This document shows positions 13,870 to 41,666 of a stretch of 64,000 bases of DNA, piece by piece. Every line of letters begins with the position of its first letter. The first letter of the stretch is position 1. This DNA is from a phage: the sequence record PZ151149.1. One strand, given 5' to 3'. The notes under the pieces are model-generated. The model worked only from the letters and a program-made list of their open reading frames with translations. It was not told where the DNA came from and made no database searches. Both the position numbers and the translations under genes were made by a program.

Positions 13870-15339
13870 CTATTCCCCATTACCATTATACTTTCTTTGC
13901 TTAGTTATCCACACTCTAACCATCTCTACTGATTCACCGTCAGACGGATCAAGAGTTTTTCCTTTTTTCTTCATGCGATACTTAAATCCGTTAAATCTTG
14001 CATTCTCTTGCTCGTTAAAGTCGAACATCTTTTTAAATGATTTTCGCCCTTTACGCTCACCACATTCTAGCGGAATCATTCGGTCTGTTATTACATTGGC
14101 ATTAGGTAGAAACGTTTTTAGATAATCCACCAAAGCCCAATCAGGAACATATAGATTAACATTCTCCTTGCTATCGTTGTCTCTCAGGTTACAACGCAAA
14201 CATAATTGAAATGCTGGTTCCAGATAATCAGACACATGACGCGCTTTCAAAAACTCGTTTGTCGGGAGATCACAACTATTAGCAAGACCTTTTAAAATAT
14301 CAATCTCCCATCGTTGAGGGTTAAAGCTGAACATCACAGCAACATTTTTATGATGAATGTAAGAGTTAAGACCATAAGATCCGTAAGGTATCCGCTCACC
14401 AATACCATTTGTGCACGCTTCACGGTCCCGATTCACTGTATAAATGAAGTTATCACCACATTCATTTTTAACCATATCAACAAGACGTTCAAAGGTATTG
14501 TTTGTTTCTGACTGGTGACGCGACCATCGTTCGGAGTCCGTCATAAGGATGATGTTAACTCTATCTGTATTTTTATACTCTTTGAAATATAGTCTGGATT
14601 CTAGCGCACTCGGAACAAAATCGCAATTTGCATAGTATCGTAGATACTTCCCACTATATGTATCAAAGAGATTTGCACATGCTATCGTAACCTTTTTAAA
14701 GTCTCCCCATGTACCGTGTTTGTTATCGTTCAAGAAAACAATTTTCGACCCATTCTTCCGGTGTCCTTCGTTATGTTTTACCATAACGTTGATTTTCTTC
14801 TCTAATAACGCCTCATAAAGCCCTCTAAGAGAAGAATCGATCATATCAGTACCATCCTTTGCACTTTCTATCTTTTCTTTGATAGCGGCCTTCTCGGAGT
14901 CTTTTAGAACTAAGTTCTGTAGACATTCCGATTCGTCGGCGATTGGTTCGCAATGCTTCGTGATAAGTTCAAGATTAGACTTAAACGGATACTCATTAAA
15001 TTCAACCAGTTGAGGAACTTCATCAATGTAAAGCGCATAATCACCAAACATTTTTGAACGTTCCATATTAGATAACGCTGTATGTGTAATGAATATCACA
15101 TCAGCACCATCTTTAACTGATTGCATTATCGACGCTTGCACTGTCTTAAGGCTTCTTAGTCTTGTGCTATCAATCAAGACAGCACGACCGCCCATTCTTT
15201 TAAACTTATTGTAAGATTGTTCACTTAAAACACGAGATGGCGAAGCAATAACCGCTTTTTCTTTTGTCTCTAGGACGTGGGAAAGTATAGCATCAGTTTT
15301 CCCCGCCGCTGGCAATGCGATTAATGTTTCAATCTTCAT
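13870..15339 (-). CDS. Uncharacterised P-loop NTPase, helicase-like N-terminal domain
   Basis: 489 aa; Walker A ALPAAGKT, VIASPSRVL (motif Ia-like) and YIDEVPQ (Walker B-like); no match recalled to known T4 genes at this locus. Confidence 0.6.
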   Translation of the reverse strand: MKIETLIALPAAGKTDAILSHVLETKEKAVIASPSRVLSEQSYNKFKRMGGRAVLIDSTRLRSLKTVQASIMQSVKDGADVIFITHTALSNMERSKMFGDYALYIDEVPQLVEFNEYPFKSNLELITKHCEPIADESECLQNLVLKDSEKAAIKEKIESAKDGTDMIDSSLRGLYEALLEKKINVMVKHNEGHRKNGSKIVFLNDNKHGTWGDFKKVTIACANLFDTYSGKYLRYYANCDFVPSALESRLYFKEYKNTDRVNIILMTDSERWSRHQSETNNTFERLVDMVKNECGDNFIYTVNRDREACTNGIGERIPYGSYGLNSYIHHKNVAVMFSFNPQRWEIDILKGLANSCDLPTNEFLKARHVSDYLEPAFQLCLRCNLRDNDSKENVNLYVPDWALVDYLKTFLPNANVITDRMIPLECGERKGRKSFKKMFDFNEQENARFNGFKYRMKKKGKTLDPSDGESVEMVRVWITKQRKYNGNGE

Positions 15340-15806: not shown

Positions 15807-16065
15807 AAATCGCCCTCAGTTCTTTATAGCCTCCAATGTGCTCGTTGTCAATGAATATCTGGGGGTATACAAACCGGAGGCTCTTTGAGTTTAGCCTCCC
15901 CGCCAGTTCTTCAATCATATCACGGTCGGGAATAATGTCAACCCCGACCTGCTTGAATACTGGTTTAAGTGTATACGGAATACCCAGATCATCCAGTAGC
16001 TTCATTGCACCAATACAACCATAACAATGATAAGCCTCTTTCGGTATGCCGTATATCTCGATCAT
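15796..16065 (-). CDS. nrdH: Glutaredoxin-like protein (NrdH-like)
   Basis: 89 aa, CYGC redox motif near N-terminus, position between 55 and nrdG as in T4. Confidence 0.65.
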   Translation of the reverse strand: MIEIYGIPKEAYHCYGCIGAMKLLDDLGIPYTLKPVFKQVGVDIIPDRDMIEELAGRLNSKSLRFVYPQIFIDNEHIGGYKELRAIYDY

Positions 16066-16538
16066 TTCTCAGCCTTTAATCTTTCTAGTTCTTCTTCCAG
16101 TTCCTTGATCCGTTGGTCACGTTCAAAGTCACGCTGTAGCTTAGTGGCAAATACTCGCTTAAACTGATTGTAATCATCGATTTTAAACACTTCTTCTTCG
16201 CCATAGCGACGCACAGAAACTTCGTAGTTATTGAAGAATTGTTGCATCATTGCTTCGGATGATAGCTCTGCTGATACCACTTTAAAATATTGATCTTCTG
16301 TAGGCGAAAACCAATTACAAGCATAAAGATAAACCTTTTCATTGTCTGGACACTGGTAAGCCTTACCATCGATTTCAATCACAGAAACATATTCAGGTAT
16401 ACTAGATGAATCAATAGCTAAGACTTTAAACGCACGGTCCCCGATAAACTCGGAGATCACACGATTCGCATCACTGGTTGCAAATGCTTTACGCGCTTGT
16501 TCGTTTTTCCACTGATAGGTCATACCAACAACAAACAT
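16062..16538 (-). CDS. Member of expanded paralogous domain family (one repeat + coiled-coil tail)
   Basis: MFVVGMTYQWKNEQARKAF...VIEIDGKAY...YF motif shared with neighbouring ORFs; ATG at 16538. Confidence 0.6.
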   Translation of the reverse strand: MFVVGMTYQWKNEQARKAFATSDANRVISEFIGDRAFKVLAIDSSSIPEYVSVIEIDGKAYQCPDNEKVYLYACNWFSPTEDQYFKVVSAELSSEAMMQQFFNNYEVSVRRYGEEEVFKIDDYNQFKRVFATKLQRDFERDQRIKELEEELERLKAEK

Positions 16539-16539
16539 A

Positions 16540-17364
16540 TTACCAACCTCGCTCTTTACCAATCAAAAATTCAACTTCACGACGTTTAATGTCTTCTTGA
16601 AGGTCTTTAATCTTCTGGCGATCTTGCATGATTTCATCCATCTTGTCAAGTGCTGTAATGAAGTCATCGAAACGTTCAAAGGTTTTACCTTCATTTGCTT
16701 CGCCAAATTTAACCATTGTCAGGCCGTAACGACTACTAAACAGACGTTTCAACTGTCCAACGATTTTAGAATCAGTGGTTATAACTTCCAATTCTTCTAC
16801 TTCACGAAAGAATTTTCTATCAGAATCAATAAACCAGCTAGTTCCTTTATGGTCTCTATCTTCGGTTGCGCTCATTAGAGTATGGTCTTTACCATCAATT
16901 TCAATTACATCAATTTGCCCACATGGACTAACATTTTTAACAGTAAAAGGTCTATAATTTATTGCTCGTGCAATAACATAATTAAGGTTAGATACGTTTT
17001 CAGCATAATGACAGAAGTCGGTCATAGCCTTATCATCTTTCCAAGTATAAGTTTTACCAACTTCCCATTTCTGGGGAACTTCTTCAACTTCACGAAAGAA
17101 TTTTCTATCAAATGGACTAAACAAATATGTTGACTTCCAAATGTCTTTTCCTGTAGCAGTTTTCGCCGTATGATAAACACCGTCTAGCTCTATTGCATCA
17201 ATCCAACCGTTACCCTCGATCTCGATGATGGTAAATGGCTTGTCACCAATAGCTGCACTAATATCGCTGTTAAGTGGAGAAAGAACACCTTCTCCGTTAG
17301 TAATAAACTCAGTTTTAGCGTTTTCGTCTTTCCAAGTGTAAGTTTTACCAATTTCCCATTTCAT
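16540..17364 (-). CDS. Member of expanded paralogous domain family (two tandem repeats + coiled-coil tail)
   Basis: Two internal copies: MKWEIGKTYTWKDENAKTEF...IELDGVYHT...DRKFFREVEEV and QKWEVGKTYTWKDDKAMTDF...IEIDGKDHT...DRKFFREVEELE. Confidence 0.65.
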   Translation of the reverse strand: MKWEIGKTYTWKDENAKTEFITNGEGVLSPLNSDISAAIGDKPFTIIEIEGNGWIDAIELDGVYHTAKTATGKDIWKSTYLFSPFDRKFFREVEEVPQKWEVGKTYTWKDDKAMTDFCHYAENVSNLNYVIARAINYRPFTVKNVSPCGQIDVIEIDGKDHTLMSATEDRDHKGTSWFIDSDRKFFREVEELEVITTDSKIVGQLKRLFSSRYGLTMVKFGEANEGKTFERFDDFITALDKMDEIMQDRQKIKDLQEDIKRREVEFLIGKERGW

Positions 17365-17376
17365 AATATATTCCCC

Positions 17377-17862
17377 TTAACCGATTTTATCAAGTTCGTT
17401 TAACGCTTTCTCTGCTTCCTGTATAGCTTGCACCCTTTCCGGCATTTTGTCAAGAAAATCTTTCAACTCTTCAAAACTGGAGATATGACGCAAGGCGTTA
17501 GCACCGATAGCCGCATGTGATTTGCATTCAAAGCGGATTTTATAATTATCCATAGCCAATTTGAGAAGATCAATTAGATCATGTTCATGACCAGGCAATA
17601 AAACTTCTTTGAAGCACGCTCGGTCGGCATCGGAAAACCATATATTATCACCAACATCGATAGAACTAATATAATCCCCTTCGTGATTATAGATTGAACG
17701 TACATTACCCCAACGGTCTACCGTAGCGACAGTAAATGGTTTATCTAGATATGTAAACACACCATCAATATTAGGTTTTTGTTCGTAACGCCAACCATCA
17801 CGCAAAATACGCTTTTCGTCCTCACCAACCAACTTATATGTCTTCCCTTCTTCCCATTTCAT
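17377..17862 (-). CDS. Member of expanded paralogous domain family
   Basis: MKWEEGKTYKL...DADRACFKEV; start at ATG 17862. Confidence 0.6.
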   Translation of the reverse strand: MKWEEGKTYKLVGEDEKRILRDGWRYEQKPNIDGVFTYLDKPFTVATVDRWGNVRSIYNHEGDYISSIDVGDNIWFSDADRACFKEVLLPGHEHDLIDLLKLAMDNYKIRFECKSHAAIGANALRHISSFEELKDFLDKMPERVQAIQEAEKALNELDKIG

Positions 17863-17866
17863 AATA

Positions 17867-18394
17867 TCATCTCTCATTTTTGATACGTGATTCTAATTGG
17901 ATCATACGGTCGCGCGTTTGCTTATATTCGCGGATAGCACCGATTCGGCTAGGCATACCATCCAGTACGCTCTTAATACCTTCTAGGGTAGTGATTTTAG
18001 CAATGCTATTATGCAATCCTGTCTTATCGATCAACTGAATGTCGTAGGCTTCCATAAGCAGACCCAGACGTTCTAAAGTTAGGTCTTCTTCTTTTTCTTC
18101 CGATTCTGGAATCTTAGGTTCAATAGTAACTTCGGTAAAGAAACGACGCTCACCCGACCAAAACCACACGCCGGAACAGCCAATAGGGGATTCTTTTAAC
18201 GTCATAGAGTCGAAATTACTACCAATAATAGTAATTTCTCTAACATCACCATCATCATCAAGGTCTTCTACCCTAAACGGGCGACCAGCCAACAAGTCAA
18301 CAATACATCTGTTAATAGACGACGAAAATTTAGTCAGTTCGGCTTTCGACGCTTCGCATTCAATCTTGTAAGTTTTACCAACTTCCCATTCCAT
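17867..18394 (-). CDS. Member of expanded paralogous domain family
   Basis: MEWEVGKTYKIECEASKAEL...GERRFFTEV; ATG at 18394 with GAGGTGA SD. Confidence 0.6.
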   Translation of the reverse strand: MEWEVGKTYKIECEASKAELTKFSSSINRCIVDLLAGRPFRVEDLDDDGDVREITIIGSNFDSMTLKESPIGCSGVWFWSGERRFFTEVTIEPKIPESEEKEEDLTLERLGLLMEAYDIQLIDKTGLHNSIAKITTLEGIKSVLDGMPSRIGAIREYKQTRDRMIQLESRIKNER

Positions 18395-18404
18395 AATAAT
18401 CACC

Positions 18405-18908
18405 TCAAATAATTTTCACTGGAATACTATTAACAATCTTGTATTGTACTTGATTGTCAGACCCCCGCCACGGCTTCTTCGTTGGCATATCTTTAATATA
18501 ACGCCCATCGATGAACATGTCAACTGATTCTACAATTTTTCTTTGCTCATCATTCAATTGGTCAAGGGTATAACCAGACCATAGCCAAATATCTTTATTT
18601 GGCATCCATGATTTTACTTCATCGATGATCCGCTGTACACCCTTTAAATTGCGTTTATACAGTGGATCACCGCCTAAGAATGTTAGCCCCTGAATAAAAT
18701 CAGGTCTAAGCAGATCCAGAATCAATCCCATTGTGTCATCAGTGAATGGTTCCCCGTTCTTAGGATTGAGTAGACTGGAATTAAAGCAACCATCACATGC
18801 GTGTGAACATCCGGTAACGTAAAGGGAGACTCTCACTCCCTCACCGTTAACCATATCACAATCTTTAATATCGGCATAGCGTAGTTTGCCGTATGTATCA
18901 GAACTCAT
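18405..18908 (-). CDS. nrdG: Anaerobic ribonucleotide reductase activating protein NrdG (radical SAM)
   Basis: CxxxCxxC-type cluster VTGCSHACDGC, LTFLGGDPLY, DIWLWSGY, KKPWRGSDNQ; strong similarity to T4 NrdG. Confidence 0.85.
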   Translation of the reverse strand: MSSDTYGKLRYADIKDCDMVNGEGVRVSLYVTGCSHACDGCFNSSLLNPKNGEPFTDDTMGLILDLLRPDFIQGLTFLGGDPLYKRNLKGVQRIIDEVKSWMPNKDIWLWSGYTLDQLNDEQRKIVESVDMFIDGRYIKDMPTKKPWRGSDNQVQYKIVNSIPVKII

Positions 18909-19125
18909 ATTCAATTACCCCGAACTCGTTTACAATCTGCGCTTTATAGTAACCGCCGCGAGATGCTAATAGATAAGCTGGGCTTAGGTATTCGTATTCA
19001 CGGATTTCTACTTGTGCGTTTTCAGTTTCCCAAATCAGTAAAGTCCACATATTTGATTCTCCTGTAAAGTTGTATCTCGTCTTGATGAATATAGTATAGG
19101 GGATCTCGCGATCCCCGTCAAGCAT
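18898..19125 (-). CDS. hypothetical protein
   Basis: 75-aa ORF. Confidence 0.4.
   Translation of the reverse strand: MLDGDREIPYTIFIKTRYNFTGESNMWTLLIWETENAQVEIREYEYLSPAYLLASRGGYYKAQIVNEFGVIEYEF
19093..19121 (-). promoter_or_regulatory. Early-type promoter TTGACG-17-TATACT with hairpin-forming spacer
   Basis: Spacer GGGATCGCGAGATCCCC is self-complementary; lies just upstream of 18898..19125 ORF. Confidence 0.4.
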
Positions 19126-19653
19126 TTATTTTAAATTTTTTCGAATGTATTCAGACCATTCCTTCCCCGTCATTTCGGACCCATTCTGGAAACTGAAATA
19201 TTCATACGGCATCGAGTCAAGATAAAACAGGATCATACATCGCGCCATATAATACCAATCACGATTAAAGTAAACTACGTTATCACCAGTACCATCAACC
19301 CCTTTATCATAACCATCGCGGGTACGGGCTACCCATTGAATAGTATCATTTTTCTCACGGATAGTAACAGGTTCCCAATATCCAGCACATCCAGCATGAC
19401 CACACGAACAAGTAAGGAAGTATTGGCCTTTTGCTTTGTTGTCATCCCATTCACGATGGATTGGTTTGATCTCGTGAAACAGTGCCAAGCAATCATGATT
19501 ATGCAACACTGGCTTACCATCAATCAATGCATGGAATGTATACAAACGACCAGTAGACAAATAGCTATCCTCACGCTCACAGAGTTCAATAGCAATCTTT
19601 TTAGCTTGTTCTTTGTGCCGTTGTGCTTTACGCTTACGGTTTAATGATTTCAT
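19126..19653 (-). CDS. hypothetical protein (Cys-rich CSCGHAGCAGYW segment)
   Basis: ATG at 19653 with GAGGTGA SD. Confidence 0.5.
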   Translation of the reverse strand: MKSLNRKRKAQRHKEQAKKIAIELCEREDSYLSTGRLYTFHALIDGKPVLHNHDCLALFHEIKPIHREWDDNKAKGQYFLTCSCGHAGCAGYWEPVTIREKNDTIQWVARTRDGYDKGVDGTGDNVVYFNRDWYYMARCMILFYLDSMPYEYFSFQNGSEMTGKEWSEYIRKNLK

Positions 19654-19670
19654 ATTCACCTCACACATTA

Positions 19671-20216
19671 TCAAAGGTCGCGATATAGCACATTATGAAA
19701 ATGAGAACTTGCATTACCAATATTGTAGATAATAAATTCTTCATCCGGCGCTTGCGCTACAAATTGAGTATGAGCAACCGCTACAACCTTAAAAATACGA
19801 TCCGTAATCTTGTGTTTAATTTCTGCTCCTACTTCCATAGGAACATATTCATGTGTTTCTGTTTCAGTCGCAAAACAGCTATCTTCTTCATAAGCACGAA
19901 CAAATCGATCGCAATCAGTACGCTTAACAAATTCAAGAGTATATAATTCTCGTGAATTGTCGGTATAGACCAATACAGAATTATTCTGATAGCGAATCAC
20001 ATACAGGTTATTATCATCGTCAAGTACACAAAAGCTACGGATTTGTGTTCCTTCGCCTTTACTCCAGCAGATATTAACCACGGTTCCTCTAATAAAAAAA
20101 CTTTCCTTTAAATTAAAACTAGCCAATGTGCTAGCGTGCATTTTAACAACAACACCATCACCAATTTCCAGTTTACGAAGTTTAACTTCTTTGCTCAGTA
20201 CACAAAACATCATCAT
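19671..20216 (-). CDS. hypothetical protein
   Basis: 181-aa ORF starting MMMF. Confidence 0.5.
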   Translation of the reverse strand: MMMFCVLSKEVKLRKLEIGDGVVVKMHASTLASFNLKESFFIRGTVVNICWSKGEGTQIRSFCVLDDDNNLYVIRYQNNSVLVYTDNSRELYTLEFVKRTDCDRFVRAYEEDSCFATETETHEYVPMEVGAEIKHKITDRIFKVVAVAHTQFVAQAPDEEFIIYNIGNASSHFHNVLYRDL

Positions 20217-20244
20217 GTTGTCCTCTCGTTGTTTTCGATGTGAG

Positions 20245-20272
20245 CATTATACATTAGCTAATCAGGTTGTCA
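20245..20272 (-). promoter_or_regulatory. sigma70-type early promoter (TTGACA-16-TATAAT)
   Basis: Exact hexamers on minus strand upstream of 19671..20216. Confidence 0.45.
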
Positions 20273-20280
20273 ACACCCCA

Positions 20281-20311
20281 AAACGAAAAAGCCGACCCTT
20301 TCGGATCGGCT
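20281..20311 (-). terminator. Rho-independent terminator after nrdD
   Basis: Minus-strand hairpin AGCCGAUCC-GAAA-GGGUCGGCU followed by UUUUUCGUUUU. Confidence 0.6.
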
Positions 20312-20316
20312 AAAAA

Positions 20317-22179
20317 TTACATGTGCTTAACGCGGTTTACCATCTCGGAGTGTTTCCCGTGGTTAAATGGACGCAGATCAACAGATCCAAGATATCCACT
20401 AACGCGACGGATAACATTCATCTTTTCCAGATTGTCGTTGCCGCAATCAGGACAAACAAAACCAGACTCGGTCGCTCTCATTTCCTTATTAGATCCGCAT
20501 ACATGACATACATCAGAAGGAGTATTAACACCGAAGTAGTGCAATTTATCCATTGCATAGTCTACTACAGTTTCAAGACCTTTCAGGTTGTTTTTCATGT
20601 CTGGGAACTCAACATAAGAGATCATGCCACCGGACGCCAGCCAGTGATAATCTTTCTCAAAGTCAATTTTCTCAAATGGAGTGACTTTCCGGTCTACGTC
20701 AAGGTGGAATGAGTTGGTGTACCAGTCTTTATCGGTAGCACCCTTAACAATACCAAATTGCTCTCGGTCCAGTCGATTAAATCGATAGCAAAGGCTCTCG
20801 GCTGGCGTACCGTAAAGACTAAACCCAAGTCCGGTTTCTTCCTTCCATTTGTCAGTATAATGACGCAGGATTTTAAGAATATGTTTACCGTATCGCTGCG
20901 CATCTTCCGAATCAAACGGATGAACACCAAACAGGACGCTCAATACCTCATGTAAACCAATATACCCAAGAGAGATACTAGCGCGACCATCTTTCAACAC
21001 TTCCAAAATTTCATCGTTTTGATGAATACGGAAAAATGCACCTTCTGTATACAGCACCGGAGCAACATTGGCTTTAGCCCCTTTTAAAGCGTCTACGCGA
21101 CTCATGAGCGCATCAAAGCAAATAGGCATACGATTAGCTAGCTCTTGTTCGAATAGCTCAATTCTGCGCATTACAGACGCTTTACCAGCACGACGAGCGG
21201 CAATAAGGGCAATACGCGGAAGATTCAGAGTCACAACACCTAAGTTATTACGTCCGTCTAATACTTCCTCGCCTTTCTCATTATGCCACACACCCAGGAA
21301 GCTACGACAACCCATCGGGCTAACCGGAACACTAGATCCGGTGATACTACGGTTATTCTTCGCAGAGATATAATCAGGGTAAAGACGCTTACTAGAACAT
21401 TCCAATGCAAGTTGCTTAATGTCGTAGTTCGGATCTTCCGGTTTAAGGTTTAATCCTTCTTCTAAGAACATCACCAGCTTAGGAAACACCGGAGTGATAC
21501 CATCTTTACCTAAACCTTTAGTTCGAACTTTCAGGATCGCTTTCTGAATCAGTTTTTCTTCCCAGCTAGTCCCCATACCAAATGTTAAAGTCACAAAAGG
21601 TGTTTGACCGTTGGTGGAGAACAAAGTGTTGATTTCATATTCCAACGCTTGATACCCGTCTAGCGTTTCTTTTTCTGTCTTCTCTTGTGCATAGAGAGTA
21701 TCCGCTTTGATTCCGTAGGTTTCGGCATCAGCAAGGTGTTTATGATATGTTTTCTCAACGTATGGCGCTAAAACCTGATCGATGTTTGCAATTGTGGTCC
21801 CGCCATATTGATGACTTGCCACCTGTGCGATAATTTGAGCGGTTACAGCACAAGCAACGCCGATTGATTTCGGACTTTCGATTTGTGCGCTACCCAATTT
21901 AAAACCATTCTCTAACATGTCTTTGAGATTAACAAGACAGCAGTTAGTAAACGGCATAGCGGGTGCATAATCCATATCATGATAATGAATGTCACCGTCT
22001 ACATGCGCTTTATAGATGTGCTCAGGTAACACGGTTTTAGCAATCTGTTTAGACACAGCACCAGCAATCAGATCTCGACGTGTCGGGAATGTTCGCGCGT
22101 CTTTGTTCGCGTTCTCTTTGCTTACTTCGTTTTCTTTACCCGTTGCGATCTCTGTAATGTCTTTGATTAGTTTTTCCAT
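20317..22179 (-). CDS. nrdD: Anaerobic ribonucleoside-triphosphate reductase NrdD (glycyl radical enzyme), uninterrupted
   Basis: 620 aa; C-terminal glycyl radical motif RVSGYLG; strong similarity to T4 NrdD; no intron apparent. Confidence 0.9.
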   Translation of the reverse strand: MEKLIKDITEIATGKENEVSKENANKDARTFPTRRDLIAGAVSKQIAKTVLPEHIYKAHVDGDIHYHDMDYAPAMPFTNCCLVNLKDMLENGFKLGSAQIESPKSIGVACAVTAQIIAQVASHQYGGTTIANIDQVLAPYVEKTYHKHLADAETYGIKADTLYAQEKTEKETLDGYQALEYEINTLFSTNGQTPFVTLTFGMGTSWEEKLIQKAILKVRTKGLGKDGITPVFPKLVMFLEEGLNLKPEDPNYDIKQLALECSSKRLYPDYISAKNNRSITGSSVPVSPMGCRSFLGVWHNEKGEEVLDGRNNLGVVTLNLPRIALIAARRAGKASVMRRIELFEQELANRMPICFDALMSRVDALKGAKANVAPVLYTEGAFFRIHQNDEILEVLKDGRASISLGYIGLHEVLSVLFGVHPFDSEDAQRYGKHILKILRHYTDKWKEETGLGFSLYGTPAESLCYRFNRLDREQFGIVKGATDKDWYTNSFHLDVDRKVTPFEKIDFEKDYHWLASGGMISYVEFPDMKNNLKGLETVVDYAMDKLHYFGVNTPSDVCHVCGSNKEMRATESGFVCPDCGNDNLEKMNVIRRVSGYLGSVDLRPFNHGKHSEMVNRVKHM

Positions 22180-22190
22180 TGTATCACCTA

Positions 22191-22214
22191 TGAAAAAGCG
22201 GGATTTCTCCCGCT
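22191..22214 (-). terminator. Hairpin AGCGGGAGAAAUCCCGCU + UUUUU immediately upstream of nrdD RBS
   Basis: 7-bp stem, U tract; lies between 22224..22718 ORF and nrdD. Confidence 0.5.
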
Positions 22215-22223
22215 CGTTGATAG

Positions 22224-22718
22224 TTATTTTACCAGTTCTGCTAATTCTTTTTCCGCCGCTTCCAGTTCAGCTTTCAGTTGTTTGATCTCTTGTCGCTTCT
22301 TATTAGCGGCTTCCTGCTTACTATTTCGGATAATCTGATCTAGATACAACTCCCAATCCTGAATATTTTTGATAATGTAGCCGTCAACATTAATTGGTCG
22401 GAGATTCAGTACAGCTTCCAGTTTAGTTGCAAAAACTTTAATTGCTGGTGTGAAGTATTCATATTCGTTATCTTCAAACCAATAACCTAGACTTGCATTA
22501 TCAATACTAAGACGAAGTTCAAGATCAAGGTCTTTATCTTCGGTGTATAGGTCTTTTACACCCCCCATCGAACCAACAACAACTTTAAAACGAATTTTAT
22601 CAACACCACCAAACACATCAGTAAGGATACCAGCAATTGAGCTATTAGCGCAAGATTGGTCGCTGAATGCGTCAAGGTTTTCTTTAGTTACAGTATACCA
22701 AACATCTTGTTTCCACAT
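22224..22718 (-). CDS. hypothetical protein with C-terminal coiled coil (distant relative of the expanded family)
   Basis: 164 aa; N-terminal WKQDVWYTVTKENLDAF and C-terminal KQLKAELEAAEKELAEL. Confidence 0.5.
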   Translation of the reverse strand: MWKQDVWYTVTKENLDAFSDQSCANSSIAGILTDVFGGVDKIRFKVVVGSMGGVKDLYTEDKDLDLELRLSIDNASLGYWFEDNEYEYFTPAIKVFATKLEAVLNLRPINVDGYIIKNIQDWELYLDQIIRNSKQEAANKKRQEIKQLKAELEAAEKELAELVK

Positions 22719-22748
22719 AATATAATCCTCTCGTTGTTAAGTGGGAGT

Positions 22749-22776
22749 ATTATAGCATACTCCCTTCGCATGTCAA
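22749..22776 (-). promoter_or_regulatory. Early promoter with stem-loop (TTGACA-16-TATAAT)
   Basis: -10 embedded in GGGAGUAUGCUAUAAUACUCCC hairpin. Confidence 0.45.
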
Positions 22777-23951
22777 GCACTAACTTTTTTCTTTACTGCT
22801 TTCACCTTCTGGCGAATTGCTCGAATCTCTTCGATCTCTTTTTCAGTCTCTTTAACAATTTCTTTGCGATTCTGAATATCTGTATCGAGATTATCATCAA
22901 GTTTAGGCAGCATGTCAATCAAGAACTTTTTAAAGTCTTTCAGGTTTCGAATAACAGCACCTTCGCCCATTACCGCAACACCCACACCATCCGGCAGATC
23001 ACCAAACAGCTTAACCAGTTCAGACAGATGATCATGATCTTCTAGTGCTTCTTCCGGTTCAGATGGCAGTTCAACAAAGTTATAACGTTCATCATTGCTG
23101 ATCAAGTGATACCAGCAAAGCCCGAAAGATTTCGGTGTATATTCTACACCATCAATTTCAACCGCGTCAACACTTCCATAATCATCTACTTTAGTTACCT
23201 TAAATCCTTGTCCCAGCTTTTGAACAATTTCAACAACATGACTTGATACAGTTTCAGCGGTAAACCAATATGGCAAATTATGCTGATTTGGCTTGTAGCG
23301 TTCACCTACTTTAAATCTCTGACCATCCGCTTGCATAGAATGAAATTGTTGTTTCGTGATTTCCGCGAAGTATTCAAATTCGCCACCATCAAACACACAA
23401 GCCCATTGATCACAAAAACGATCTGCCTTAACAGTTTCACCTTTCGCGGTGATCATGGTAGCTGATCCGTGCAATTCTTCTTCAACTAAAAAGCCATATT
23501 CGACAAAATCAACAAGTTTCATAGCTTCTTTGTGATCTGGATCATGCTCTCCCCAGAATCGCTTAAATTCTTGCAAACCTTCTGGGGTAAACGAATAACA
23601 TTTACCTTTTTCAAAGTAAGTCGGCATTGCATCCTCTTTCTTGTTCATCGCTTCGTATGCCTCTTTTGAGATACGTTTAAAGTATTTGCGCTCATTGTGC
23701 ATAATCATAGTAGACCAATAATAAACGATATCCTCAGCGGAATAAACTACATCTCCAGCTTCAATAGTAATAACATGACCGTGGTCATCTTTTTCTAATA
23801 CTTTAAAGCCCTTTTCTACGATTTCAGCAACCCGAATATGACCACGGCGCGAAGCATCGGTCAGATTAATTGAATAGCGAGAAAAGTCTAGAAACTCATC
23901 TTTACCACCTTCACGGAATGCATAGTAATGACCTTCAAAGAATTTAGCCAT
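22773..23951 (-). CDS. Multi-repeat member of expanded paralogous domain family (about 3 repeats + charged tail)
   Basis: 392 aa; repeats contain GFKVL, V.AVEIDG.EYT, NERKYFKRI-type motifs shared with 24008..24861 ORFs. Confidence 0.6.
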   Translation of the reverse strand: MAKFFEGHYYAFREGGKDEFLDFSRYSINLTDASRRGHIRVAEIVEKGFKVLEKDDHGHVITIEAGDVVYSAEDIVYYWSTMIMHNERKYFKRISKEAYEAMNKKEDAMPTYFEKGKCYSFTPEGLQEFKRFWGEHDPDHKEAMKLVDFVEYGFLVEEELHGSATMITAKGETVKADRFCDQWACVFDGGEFEYFAEITKQQFHSMQADGQRFKVGERYKPNQHNLPYWFTAETVSSHVVEIVQKLGQGFKVTKVDDYGSVDAVEIDGVEYTPKSFGLCWYHLISNDERYNFVELPSEPEEALEDHDHLSELVKLFGDLPDGVGVAVMGEGAVIRNLKDFKKFLIDMLPKLDDNLDTDIQNRKEIVKETEKEIEEIRAIRQKVKAVKKKVSA

Positions 23952-23982
23952 AATATAATCCTCTCGTTGTTTAAATGGGAGT

Positions 23983-24011
23983 ATCTTACTACTCCCGTTT
24001 CATCATGTCAA
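23983..24011 (-). promoter_or_regulatory. Early promoter with stem-loop (TTGACA-17-TAAGAT)
   Basis: GGGAGUAGUAAGAUACUCCC hairpin spans the -10. Confidence 0.45.
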
Positions 24012-24574
24012 GCGTTAAATGACTTTTGGATCTCTTTCAGTTCAGCTACTTTATCGGCGCTGAATTTAGCGTAGGTATCATGTCGAATAATTTCACTTTC
24101 GAGAAAGGTTTCCAGCCGAGATCTATTTTCAATAAGGAACTCTTTCAGGTCTTCCGCGTTCTTGATAAAGATTTTATTGTCAGTAATGTCATCTTCAATC
24201 GCAAAGGAGATCGAGCGAACTTTACCAAACAAGTTAATCAGATCTTCCAGAGATTCTTCTTTCTTAATTGGTTTCATTTCTTCAAACTGCTTTTTAGTGA
24301 TTCGTTTAAAGTATTTGCGCTCGTTTGCAGCAATCAGAACAGATGCACCTTCATACTCATGAGTTTCTACCAGATACACACGCCCCATCGCATCAACAGT
24401 GAGAACTTTAAAGCCGTTACAAAGCACGTCATACAAGAACTTATTATGTTGCGGACATCGTTTGATAAATTCCTCTGCGGACTCAGCATTACGGAAAGTG
24501 TAATAACGACCTCGTTCAAAAACAGCATCAGTTGAAGACTTAGCCGGATACAATTTATACGTTTTCTGTACCAT
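24008..24574 (-). CDS. Member of expanded paralogous domain family
   Basis: MVQKTYKLY..., NGFKVLTVD, ANERKYFKRI; ATG at 24574 with AGAGGA SD. Confidence 0.55.
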   Translation of the reverse strand: MVQKTYKLYPAKSSTDAVFERGRYYTFRNAESAEEFIKRCPQHNKFLYDVLCNGFKVLTVDAMGRVYLVETHEYEGASVLIAANERKYFKRITKKQFEEMKPIKKEESLEDLINLFGKVRSISFAIEDDITDNKIFIKNAEDLKEFLIENRSRLETFLESEIIRHDTYAKFSADKVAELKEIQKSFNA

Positions 24575-24588
24575 AATATAATCCTCTA

Positions 24589-24861
24589 TCATTTCACTAA
24601 TTGAACAGCACGAAACAGAATGCGGTCACACGGAAGAAGCATAAATTCCCAACGCGAATCAAAGTCTTTAGCGGTATATGTTTTCCCATCAACCGAGATT
24701 TCACTTACATAACCAATAGGTGACACTTTAAGAACAGTAAACCCATTCTTGATGACTTCGTAGGTATCTTTCAAACCTTCGTAGTCATCCTCTAGGAAGT
24801 CTTTACGTGCTTGCTCAGATTTAAAAACATAGGCCACACCGGATTTAAACATCTTACGCAT
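24589..24861 (-). CDS. Member of expanded paralogous domain family (single domain)
   Basis: GVAYVFKSEQARKDF...NGFTVLKV...ISVDGKTYTA...ILFRAV. Confidence 0.55.
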   Translation of the reverse strand: MRKMFKSGVAYVFKSEQARKDFLEDDYEGLKDTYEVIKNGFTVLKVSPIGYVSEISVDGKTYTAKDFDSRWEFMLLPCDRILFRAVQLVK

Positions 24862-24892
24862 TGTTGATTCTCCTTCTTGATTAGATGGGAGT

Positions 24893-24921
24893 ATTTTACT
24901 ACTCCCATTTCATGCTGTCAA
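24893..24921 (-). promoter_or_regulatory. Early promoter with stem-loop (TTGACA-17-TAAAAT)
   Basis: GGGAGUAGUAAAAUACUCCC hairpin spans the -10; followed by conserved leader ending AGGAGAATCAA-ATG. Confidence 0.45.
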
Positions 24922-24924
24922 CTA

Positions 24925-25398
24925 CTATCTTAATCTTTGTATAAATTGTTTCTTATACTTCTTCGTGATCTCTTCTCTTGTATCCGCGTCACAATAATCG
25001 AAACCTTCTGCGTCCATAATAGCAACCATCTCCGCGCGTGTCAAGCGTGAAAATCGTTTTACTTTATCAACAGCATATTGAGGATGTAAATGATTGTTGG
25101 TGTAGTCTCCTTTGATGTAATTAACATAGTTTGTAGCCCAAACAACGAAGTCAGCACCTAAAGCACCAACACCAAACCGTTTAAAGTCTCCGGTCAACGA
25201 TCCTTCTAGGCGGTTGCAACACGAATGAAGCAATCCCCTTACGCGGCCTTGCCCTTTCCCATCTAGATCGTGATCATGGTCAAGATGGTTTTTGCTCATA
25301 TCCTCAAAAAGTGGCAATTGACAAAGGGGGCAAATGCCCCCTTGTTTTTCGAATAGTTCTTGTTTGTACTCTTTAGCACTCTTAGCAGTCAGTAACAT
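24925..25398 (-). CDS. 49: Endonuclease VII (Holliday junction resolvase) gp49
   Basis: 157 aa from ATG 25398; strong similarity to T4 EndoVII (MLLT.K...CPLCQ...NHLDHDH.L.G...G.VRGLL...CN). Confidence 0.85.
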   Translation of the reverse strand: MLLTAKSAKEYKQELFEKQGGICPLCQLPLFEDMSKNHLDHDHDLDGKGQGRVRGLLHSCCNRLEGSLTGDFKRFGVGALGADFVVWATNYVNYIKGDYTNNHLHPQYAVDKVKRFSRLTRAEMVAIMDAEGFDYCDADTREEITKKYKKQFIQRLR

Positions 25399-41056: not shown

Positions 41057-41377
41057 TCACACCTTCAAAGTCATAGACGCATAGACATTAATACCAGGCC
41101 AGTTAGGATCGCAATTATACTCAACATCCCATAGATAAAGCGGTTTAGATGTATCAGCCAGGTTTTTAAAATCTTCTACCCACATTTCAAGGCTATATGA
41201 AGGATAAACTAGGCTATCATACCCTCCGTAACGTTGGCCTACTGGTCGGTCAGTAAAGACTACCTCAAGATCCGGTAATTCTTTTTCTAGGATAACCGCC
41301 AGCGCATAAATCAGGCGGTCTTCCTTGTTACGCTGCCGTAGGACCGTTGTCAGTTGGTTCGTCTGGTTCACTAGCAA
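41057..41377 (-). CDS. hypothetical protein (start uncertain, overlaps upstream ORF)
   Basis: Longest ORF starts at TTG; GTG two codons in with GGAGG SD is plausible. Confidence 0.4.
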   Translation of the reverse strand: MLVNQTNQLTTVLRQRNKEDRLIYALAVILEKELPDLEVVFTDRPVGQRYGGYDSLVYPSYSLEMWVEDFKNLADTSKPLYLWDVEYNCDPNWPGINVYASMTLKV

Positions 41378-41648
41378 CTACCTCCACATTTTCACAGAAT
41401 GAAATTTTCACAGACACAATTTTACCATAAGTGAAGAATGAATATACATTATCGAGATATTCAACGTCACCTACAATCACATCAAACTGCGGATCAGCAA
41501 CTGCCGCAACATATTCTACCAGTTCATCAAGAGAATGCAACTTAATTTCATCAATTCGGCTGTATTTGGTTGCATCTTTGATCTTAAAACCACGTTCTTT
41601 CAGTTTATCGATCAGAATTTCGCGCGGAGTTTCAAACAGTTTACTCAT
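41328..41648 (-). CDS. hypothetical protein
   Basis: 106-aa ORF with ATG start. Confidence 0.45.
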   Translation of the reverse strand: MSKLFETPREILIDKLKERGFKIKDATKYSRIDEIKLHSLDELVEYVAAVADPQFDVIVGDVEYLDNVYSFFTYGKIVSVKISFCENVEVVASEPDEPTDNGPTAA

Positions 41649-41666
41649 AATATAATCCTCACACAG

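Follow-up and report, generated by a model that had tools for sequence, protein, structure and literature searches.

Gene content of the locus between nrdD and gene 49

We analyzed a stretch of phage DNA of 64,000 nucleotides (nt) (sequence record PZ151149.1; here called the window) for the genes located at positions 22224-24861 (cluster 2), where four minus-strand open reading frames (ORFs) between nrdD and gene 49 (endonuclease VII) carry six copies of a domain of approx. 90 amino acids (aa); related genes are located at positions 16062-18394 (cluster 1). The phage is a coliphage of the T4-like group (Straboviridae), an RB49-like Krischvirus, and the 3-kb cluster 2 region is 95-98% identical to RB49-like genomes (59 matching GenBank records). 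Our analyses show that cluster 2 represents half of an expansion of the T4 GoF/Frd.2 family that is specific to this lineage. An earlier annotation made from the letters alone (the sequence-only reading) had placed the four ORFs at these positions and on this strand, and all motifs that it quoted are present. All features of the two clusters given below by window position are on the minus strand.

The four cluster 2 genes carry one, one, three and one domain, respectively. The first, p90 (24589..24861; orthologue of RB49p060), encodes a 90-aa protein consisting of a single GoF/Frd.2-type barrel without a C-terminal tail (isoelectric point (pI) 7.8), which also matches PHROGs 16115, 5347, 622 and 8944. 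The second, p188 (24008..24574; orthologue of RB49p059, "goF mRNA metabolism modulator" in RefSeq), comprises an 18-aa leader, one barrel (aa ~19-93) and a tail made up of a helix, a hairpin and a long helix. The third, p392 (22773..23951; orthologue of RB49p058, "frd.2"/"goF mRNA metabolism modulator"), has three tandem barrels and a tail, i.e., repeat 1 (aa 3-95, 23667..23945) and repeat 3 (aa 211-294, 23070..23321), which were delimited by profile (iterated, for repeat 1) and predicted structure, repeat 2 (aa 113-199, 23355..23615), the most divergent of the three, which is supported by predicted structure and three PHROG 622 stretches, and the C-terminal tail (aa 307-391, 22779..23033), which contains a helix, a beta-hairpin and a 55-residue helix. 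The fourth, p164 (22224..22718; orthologue of RB49p057, "hypothetical protein"), carries one divergent barrel (aa 1-92) and the same kind of tail. Among the RB49 RefSeq counterparts of cluster 2 (RB49p057-p060), two are thus labelled "goF mRNA metabolism modulator" and two "hypothetical protein".

Cluster 1 comprises four genes with five domains, arranged end to end between nrdH and nrdG, i.e., p175 (17867-18394), p161 (17377-17862; 166 aa as the longest ORF), p274 with two domains (16540-17364) and p158 (16062-16538); all four RB49 counterparts (RB49p048-p051, between nrdH and nrdG) are annotated as "hypothetical". Conserved strings spanning the ribosome-binding site (RBS) and the start, as well as comparison with homologues, place the likely true starts downstream of the longest-ORF starts for p188 (24574), p175 (18394), p161 (17862, which gives 161 and not 166 aa) and p158 (16538). 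For p188, the start is placed at 24574, as in the sequence-only reading, and not at 24592, where the longer ORF begins, because the RBS/start string GAGGATTATATTATG is shared.

The two clusters encode one domain family

The sequence-only reading had proposed that cluster 2 is a second array of the domain family of cluster 1, including a three-repeat protein of 392 aa, and had named the failure of a profile search to join the clusters as its refutation. The five cluster 1 domains alone served to build a hidden Markov model (HMM), which was run against the 638 six-frame stop-to-stop segments that the window contains at a minimum length of 40 aa. Apart from self-matches, the four cluster 2 ORFs scored best (p392, E = 9e-13; p90, E = 2e-11 over the full domain; p188, E = 2e-5; p164, E = 7.5e-3), with the top decoy at E = 0.05; the search thus connected all four ORFs to cluster 1, and profile and structural model together bear out the proposed array and its three-repeat protein. 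BLASTP pairs already connect the clusters (e.g., the 158-aa protein of cluster 1 and p90, with 37% identity over 67 residues), and profile iteration separates the three domains of p392, where repeat 2 was first picked up at an independent E value of 0.04 before inclusion. At the level of motifs, p90 holds GVAYVFKSEQARKDF, NGFTVL and VDGKTYT, cluster 1 holds MFVVGMTYQWKNEQARKAF and IDGKAY, and NGFKVL and ERKYFKRI are found in p188, the latter also in repeat 1 of p392.

An alignment of the 11 domains follows the pattern [WF]xxGxxY ... F ... FxV ... GxV..I ... [ED]RxxFxEV; its invariant columns are Y11, F41 and F83, which are typical of a hydrophobic core. The window therefore holds 11 domain copies (6 + 5) and the whole RB49 genome 12, within the range of 10 to 12 in two loci that had been estimated; the spacing of approx. 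5 kb given for the two loci needs adjustment, as they are separated by a gap of 3.8 kb and lie approx. 6 kb apart from start to start. One further ORF (41331-41666, minus strand, 111 aa, orthologue of RB49p109) was considered and not accepted as a member, as its match is confined to the central third of the profile (GFKIKD...IDEI); its E values were 0.05 with the first profile, before iteration, and 1.8e-3 in the RB49 genome scan.

Pairwise identity among the domains is only 15-30%, and p164 reached merely E = 7.5e-3 with the first profile, so that one might attribute the likeness of the clusters to chance or composition, or suppose that some of the ORFs, especially 22224-22718, are not genes. 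All four ORFs rank above approx. 630 decoy segments, and for p164 HMM-HMM comparison (hhalign), predicted structure and Foldseek concur. Moreover, the ORFs are conserved in 59 genomes, with ratios of nonsynonymous to synonymous substitution (dN/dS) versus RB49 of 0.09-0.53 for the four genes (0.09 for p392), i.e., the cluster 2 genes are under purifying selection; p392 is present in 59/59 Krischvirus records at an identity of at least 89.5%. These tests refute an explanation by chance or by spurious ORFs.

The ORF at 22224..22718, which the sequence-only reading had included only as a possible member, proved to be a divergent one by hhalign, structural model, Foldseek and a shared patch of DNA. 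Compared to a family alignment from which it had been excluded, p164 aligned end to end over residues 1-92 (hhalign probability 86%, E = 5e-6). In the AlphaFold2 model, its N-terminal domain (predicted local distance difference test (pLDDT) ~91) has the family layout with a helix in place of beta4, followed by a predicted tail with helices at residues 99-106 and 119-163 and strands at 109-111 and 114-116. Its Foldseek neighbours (BFVD) are the same T4-like phage proteins as those of p392, including orthologues of cluster 1 proteins and the annotated GoF of phage VR7.

Relationship to GoF, Frd.2 as well as MotB.1 of T4

GoF, Frd.2 as well as MotB.1 form a published family of T4 proteins that have an "LSm-like fold" and are linked genetically to mRNA stability (Kim et al. 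2025, PMC12152347). In this family, an N-terminal bent antiparallel sheet of five strands (~80-90 aa) is connected through a linker to a C-terminal domain that varies, a layout also predicted for p392 and, with a helix in place of beta4, for p164. The HMM built from cluster 1 only matched T4 GoF at E = 6e-8 over aa 4-91, and when the whole T4 genome was scanned in six frames with a profile built from window sequences only, the sole significant matches were GoF (1.5e-10) and Frd.2 (1.2e-4); a broader family profile added MotB.1 weakly (E = 0.013, full length). The PHROG matches of the window proteins comprise three "goF" families as well as several without a name, the translated T4 goF and frd.2 genes show the same motifs by eye, and the Foldseek neighbours are solely proteins of T4-like phages, including annotated GoF. 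These results show that the cluster 2 domain is the N-terminal SH3/"LSm-like" barrel of T4 GoF/Frd.2. The claim of the sequence-only reading that the arrays serve one unknown function is therefore out of date as to "unknown", as the domain is known and two of the genes are goF-like in RefSeq; nor need a common function of all copies follow, as surfaces and net charges vary widely (pI 4.7 to 9 per domain).

Like the window proteins, T4 GoF (ComC-alpha, 141 aa, "mRNA metabolism modulator") has an N-terminal barrel of approx. 90 aa, related over the full domain, with the motifs in the same order ([WF]xxGxxY, F, FxV, G-V..I, [ED]xxxFxEV), and shares with them acidic composition, confinement to T4-like phages and early expression, which for the window genes is predicted. 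It differs in having one head and a short, different C-terminal region and in adjoining gene 39, while the window proteins combine one to three heads with a helix/hairpin/long-helix tail and are encoded at nrdH/nrdG and nrdD/49. The best window match of T4 GoF is p188 (phmmer E = 3e-4), and that of T4 Frd.2 is repeat 3 of p392, with the match extending into the tail (phmmer E = 2.5e-4), which accounts for the gene name "frd.2" in RB49. Compared to T4 Frd.2, p392 is three times longer and located away from frd. The Pfam family PF03197 (FRD2; gathering threshold 29 bits) gave no match at E <= 1 in the eight window proteins and 133 bits for T4 Frd.2 itself. T4 MotB.1 has the same predicted fold according to Kim et al. 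(2025) and belongs to a separate subfamily; its phmmer search of the window detected no relative.

Predicted architecture of heads and tails

The head is predicted to be a five-stranded SH3/"LSm-like" beta-barrel of approx. 90 aa in which two helices are inserted after beta1 and before beta2. For p392, the AlphaFold2 model (mean pLDDT 75.7) contains three units, each running from beta1 through two helices to beta2, beta3 and beta4 and, via short helices, to beta5, in agreement with the three repeats that the sequence-only reading had suggested be checked by structure prediction; the predicted template modelling score of this model is low, as would be expected of units arranged as beads on a string. 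By DSSP assignment on the model, the tail of p392 consists of helices at residues 307-318 and 337-391 and strands at 323-327 and 330-334. With the exception of p90, which is a bare head, all cluster 2 proteins carry a predicted tail of this kind, in which a beta-hairpin connects a short helix to a long one. Scans of the eight window proteins against Pfam and NCBIfam gave nothing above noise apart from weak coiled-coil matches for the tails, and a profile search of the PDB by sequence gave nothing below E = 0.4.

With Hfq and the Sm/LSm proteins the heads share a small, bent, five-stranded antiparallel barrel, and the functional data on the GoF family all concern mRNA stability. Hfq and Sm/LSm proteins have an N-terminal helix, whereas the window heads are predicted to start with beta1 and to carry two helices between beta1 and beta2; the N-terminal helix is not universal (Kim et al. 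2025). No Sm1/Sm2 motifs and no Pfam LSM or Hfq match at E <= 1 were found in the eight window proteins.

We also observed that p90 and p188, which are 14 nt apart (24575-24592, including the spacer), resemble the layout of p274, i.e., two heads and a tail. The pair may represent a split two-head gene or a stage before gene fusion.

Promoters, stem-loops and operon layout

Three spacers of cluster 2 share a module composed of TTGACA, 16-17 nt, a -10 box inside a hairpin and then the RBS/start string. The module upstream of p90 (24887..24921) has TTGACA, 17 nt and TAAAAT, the -10 box lying within a GGGAGTA/TACTCCC hairpin (~-16 kcal/mol); the module upstream of p392 (23977..24011) belongs to a 78-nt repeat that is 73% identical to the p90 cassette, and that upstream of p164 (22743..22776) has a perfect TTGACA/TATAAT with an extended -10 TG. 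The promoters match 10-12 of 12 consensus positions and the stems are G+C-rich with 7-8 bp; the window contains the hairpin pattern three times, as compared to an expected number of 0, with fold energies of ~-15 to -16 kcal/mol. A terminator-like hairpin (22193..22215; GCGGGAGAAATCCCGC followed by TTTTT; RNAfold -17 kcal/mol for a 51-nt segment) closes cluster 2 ahead of nrdD.

By their sequence, the three modules correspond to the known promoter-early stem-loop (PeSL) cassettes, with predicted promoter and terminator roles. PeSLs of phages RB49 and phi1 have been described as strong early promoters with terminator hairpins that serve as recombination substrates, form mini-circles and mediate the shuffling of accessory ORFs, as documented by experiment (Arbiol et al. 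2010, PMC2839356). The cluster 2 cassettes resemble them in combining a consensus sigma-70 promoter with a stable hairpin, in their intergenic location in hyperplastic regions and in being repeated at 73-83% identity; they differ in that the typical PeSL stem (GGGG...CCCC) stands beside the promoter, whereas the GGGAGTA/TACTCCC stem of cluster 2 encloses the -10 box. As this hairpin is located upstream of the predicted transcription start, it would occur only in transcripts that read through from the upstream gene.

The sequence-only reading had assigned each gene of both clusters its own promoter/stem-loop module. This applies to three of the four cluster 2 genes and fails for p188, which begins 14 nt past the p90 stop without a cassette of its own, and for all of cluster 1, where gene gaps are 0-12 nt, the genes follow directly behind nrdG, one promoter-like site is located within the 3' end of nrdG, and no PeSL was found anywhere in the cluster. 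A search of positions 15900-25100 for the late-promoter motif TATAAATA found none. With sigma-70-type promoters and no late-promoter motif, the cluster 2 genes are predicted to be early genes.

As a separate observation, the region right after the nrdD stop (20246-20311, minus strand) contains a strong terminator hairpin (AGCCGATCC GAAA GGGTCGGCT, then TTTTCG) and, past it, a perfect TTGACA-16-TATAAT. This PeSL-like element has the classical layout and stands ahead of unannotated ORFs at 19671-20216, 19126-19674 and 18898-19125.

Origin and distribution of the expansion

In a six-frame scan, the complete RB49 genome showed nine genes with 12 domains, i.e., clusters 1 and 2 and Dc2, as compared to three single-domain genes in T4. 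Dc2 (RB49 NC_005066 11993-12628, locus L004) is a family member by HMM (E = 4e-10 over the full domain) and is located outside the window, which begins near RB49 position 14,200; a "Dc2" of phage ECD7 is also among the Foldseek matches. The position of Dc2 directly upstream of helicase gene 41 is of note because the phenotype of T4 GoF(D25Y) concerns gene 41 mRNA. T4 gp61.2 was considered as the counterpart of RB49 Dc2 on grounds of synteny and rejected, as the profile does not detect it. In T4, nrdD and gene 49 are directly adjacent, and nothing but the small ORF 55.8 separates nrdH and nrdG, so both clusters occupy junctions that are essentially empty in T4.

Repeats at the DNA level are found between the two domains of p274 (57 nt at 84% and 43 nt at 86% identity), between repeat 1 of p392 and p188 (53 nt at 77%, encoding NERKYFKRI) and between repeat 2 of p392 and p164 (28 nt at 82%); these repeats apparently record recent duplication or gene conversion. 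We propose that the arrays would have grown by tandem duplication and by recombination between paralogues and between PeSLs, and that in-frame fusion of neighbouring copies would have given rise to the two- and three-head proteins.

Two sets of metagenomic sequences bear on individual genes. P0023 (154 aa) begins like p175, with the N-terminal half of its head, and continues with the end of a head and the tail of p274; it may be the product expected of recombination between paralogues with deletion of the intervening genes, or an assembly artefact. P0018, P0019 and P0021, which are versions of p175, show a frame shift after approx. residue 70 (around GVWFW) that leads to a lysine-rich end, and could be sequencing errors or natural pseudogenes.

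Word-indexed homologue searches gave close Krischvirus relatives only, and an exhaustive profile search over 1.84 billion representatives exposed the wider family, which amounts to just 75 clusters at E <= 1e-3, mostly single-head proteins of 120-190 aa with about ten two-head proteins and one other three-head protein. This other three-domain match (P0094) has no counterpart in GenBank phages, and p392 was not found by tblastn in any GenBank phage outside Krischvirus. Long cellular matches (P0029, P0034, P0047, P0050, P0077 and others) were rejected as spurious, as they represent FN3-/VCBS-type repeats and cover profile positions ~30-80 only. These matches reach E = 3e-15, several per protein, and constitute an artefact of composition and beta-strands that could mislead automated family building.

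By Foldseek, members, often several per phage and including forms of 225-317 aa, are present in T4-like phages of Morganella, Cronobacter, Proteus, Pectobacterium, Serratia, Klebsiella, Citrobacter, Edwardsiella and Aeromonas. The occurrence of multi-copy and multi-head forms across T4-like phages indicates that expansion is a tendency of the family, of which Krischvirus is a large example, holding the only three-head protein among sequenced isolates.

Suppressor sites and possible function

Present at ~20,000 per cell, the early T4 protein GoF is abundant and migrates partly as a dimer. Its substitutions D25Y and G84R, both on one face of the barrel, allow T4 to grow on certain rho alleles, and GoF(D25Y) raises gene 41 mRNA and stabilises a reporter mRNA with the gene-41 5' untranslated region post-transcriptionally and independently of Hfq. 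For frd.2, a genome-wide T4 CRISPRi-ART screen found it to be the only "Fit" gene of unknown function (PMC11879866), in conflict with an frd.2 amber mutant of T4 (NC_000866 146143-146529) that plates at an efficiency near 1 (PMC12152347); the discrepancy could stem from polar effects on frd/td or from a dependence on host or conditions.

We mapped the suppressor positions of GoF onto the window heads. In the column of A83, 8 of 10 heads have Arg; Lys or Arg is found in 5 of 10 in the column of G84 and in 7 in that of D87. The D25 column has Tyr in repeat 1 of p392 and repeat 2 of p274, Phe in p175 and Arg in p188. The strand motif [ED]-[R/F/Y]-[K/R/E/Y]-[YF]-F-x-E-[VI] is family-wide; T4 GoF has A83 and G84, whereas most window copies are basic there, on the beta5 strand. 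As the window heads are commonly basic at these columns, T4 GoF appears to be the unusual member, and the suppressor mutations would shift it toward the state of the RB49 paralogues. Judged from this alignment, many wild-type RB49-type copies seem already to bear the basic/aromatic surface that T4 GoF gains only via D25Y or G84R. The invariant positions of the hydrophobic core fit a conserved scaffold with what would be diversified binding surfaces.

RNA or RNA-machinery binding is, on these grounds, the most likely function, put forward tentatively. The proteins would act as abundant early cytoplasmic binders, with a binding face that combines the [DE]-R-[KR]-x-F-[KR]-E-V strand with the variable residue located three positions past the conserved Phe22. 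This face would touch RNA, or an RNA-processing or termination factor, and phage mRNAs would thereby change in stability or read-through; dimers may form through the long helix of the tail, several heads per molecule would provide avidity or bridging, and separate paralogues would have separate targets. A bolder version is improbable in our judgement, namely that the RB49-type GoF family comprises true phage mRNA-binding and mRNA-protecting proteins, with p274 and p392 as tail-dimerised multivalent RNA clamps or bridges, a counterpart of the Hfq/ProQ type with paralogue-specific targets.

A number of observations weigh against an RNA-linked role. In the reporter assay, the wild-type forms of both GoF and MotB.1 showed little effect. 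With pI values of 4.6-5.2 and net charges of -7 to -20, most copies are strongly acidic, the only neutral or basic exceptions being p90 (pI 7.8) and the p188 head (~9). The mapping of the suppressor sites uses an alignment at 15-30% identity with insertions and deletions near D25. AlphaFold3 backed neither dimers nor hexamers of GoF (Kim et al. 2025), and by sequence the tails of the two clusters are related at a marginal level (with a cluster 1 tail HMM, the p392 tail was the top non-self match at E = 0.016), their homology being suggested mainly by matching predicted secondary structure. Finally, the closest solved fold to the heads appears to be FeoA, a protein-interaction SH3-like domain, and not Hfq.

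Another reading is a role in metal or iron handling, as for FeoA or the SH3-like domains of DtxR, IdeR and SloR. FeoA and related SH3-like barrels (CATH 2.30.30.90) show no sequence relationship to the window proteins, which have an extra helical insert, a coiled-coil-like tail and no link to iron transport; no similarity was found to FeoA or any Pfam family, and the alignment contains no conserved His/Cys metal-binding cluster, as Kim et al. (2025) also noted for GoF. We consider a metal-related role very improbable.

A serious rival, if a rather unlikely one, is that the heads bind proteins and not RNA, i.e., that they are SH3-like adaptors or inhibitors directed at host nucleases, Rho, RNA polymerase, proteases or anti-phage defence, diversified in a host-range arms race, with the RNA effects of D25Y and G84R being neomorphic. 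The acidity of most copies is consistent with such a protein-adaptor or host-takeover role, as are the lack of an RNA phenotype of wild-type GoF, with D25Y interpreted as a gain of function, and the invariance of core residues only, with divergent surfaces. The same may be said of the location of the genes in hyperplastic regions between PeSLs that shuffle accessory ORFs and of the copy number, which differs among T4-like genera. However, a GoF pull-down from uninfected cells gave no partner, and the heads conserve the basic [DE]-R-[KR]-x-F-[KR] strand, which falls at a suppressor site that is linked to mRNA levels. Overall, an expansion of the GoF/Frd.2 family that originated by duplication and acts by an RNA-linked mechanism is the best explanation, to which we assign a probability of roughly 0.55.

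Implications for the GoF family

The family itself (2025), part of the annotation (two goF-like genes) and the PeSL cassettes are already known, and cluster 2 is an extension of a known family and not a new kind of system. The four-fold expansion, the membership of six "hypothetical" genes and of Dc2, the multi-head forms, the common tail and the natural variation at the suppressor sites of T4 GoF appear to be undescribed in the searchable literature; Kim et al. (2025) mentions neither RB49, Krischvirus nor paralogues.

GoF has been a genetic puzzle since the 1970s-80s, when it emerged from the growth of T4 on rho mutants, and its family was recognised only in 2025. The Krischvirus arrays provide natural material for the study of GoF function, with twelve diverged heads in one genome, variants at both suppressor positions, and domain-only, single-, double- and triple-head versions; the neutral or basic p90 and p188 may be easier to handle in biochemistry than GoF(D25Y), which is acidic and poorly soluble. 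The locus also illustrates clearly how gene families arise through PeSL cassettes and recombination between paralogues in hyperplastic regions of T4-like genomes.

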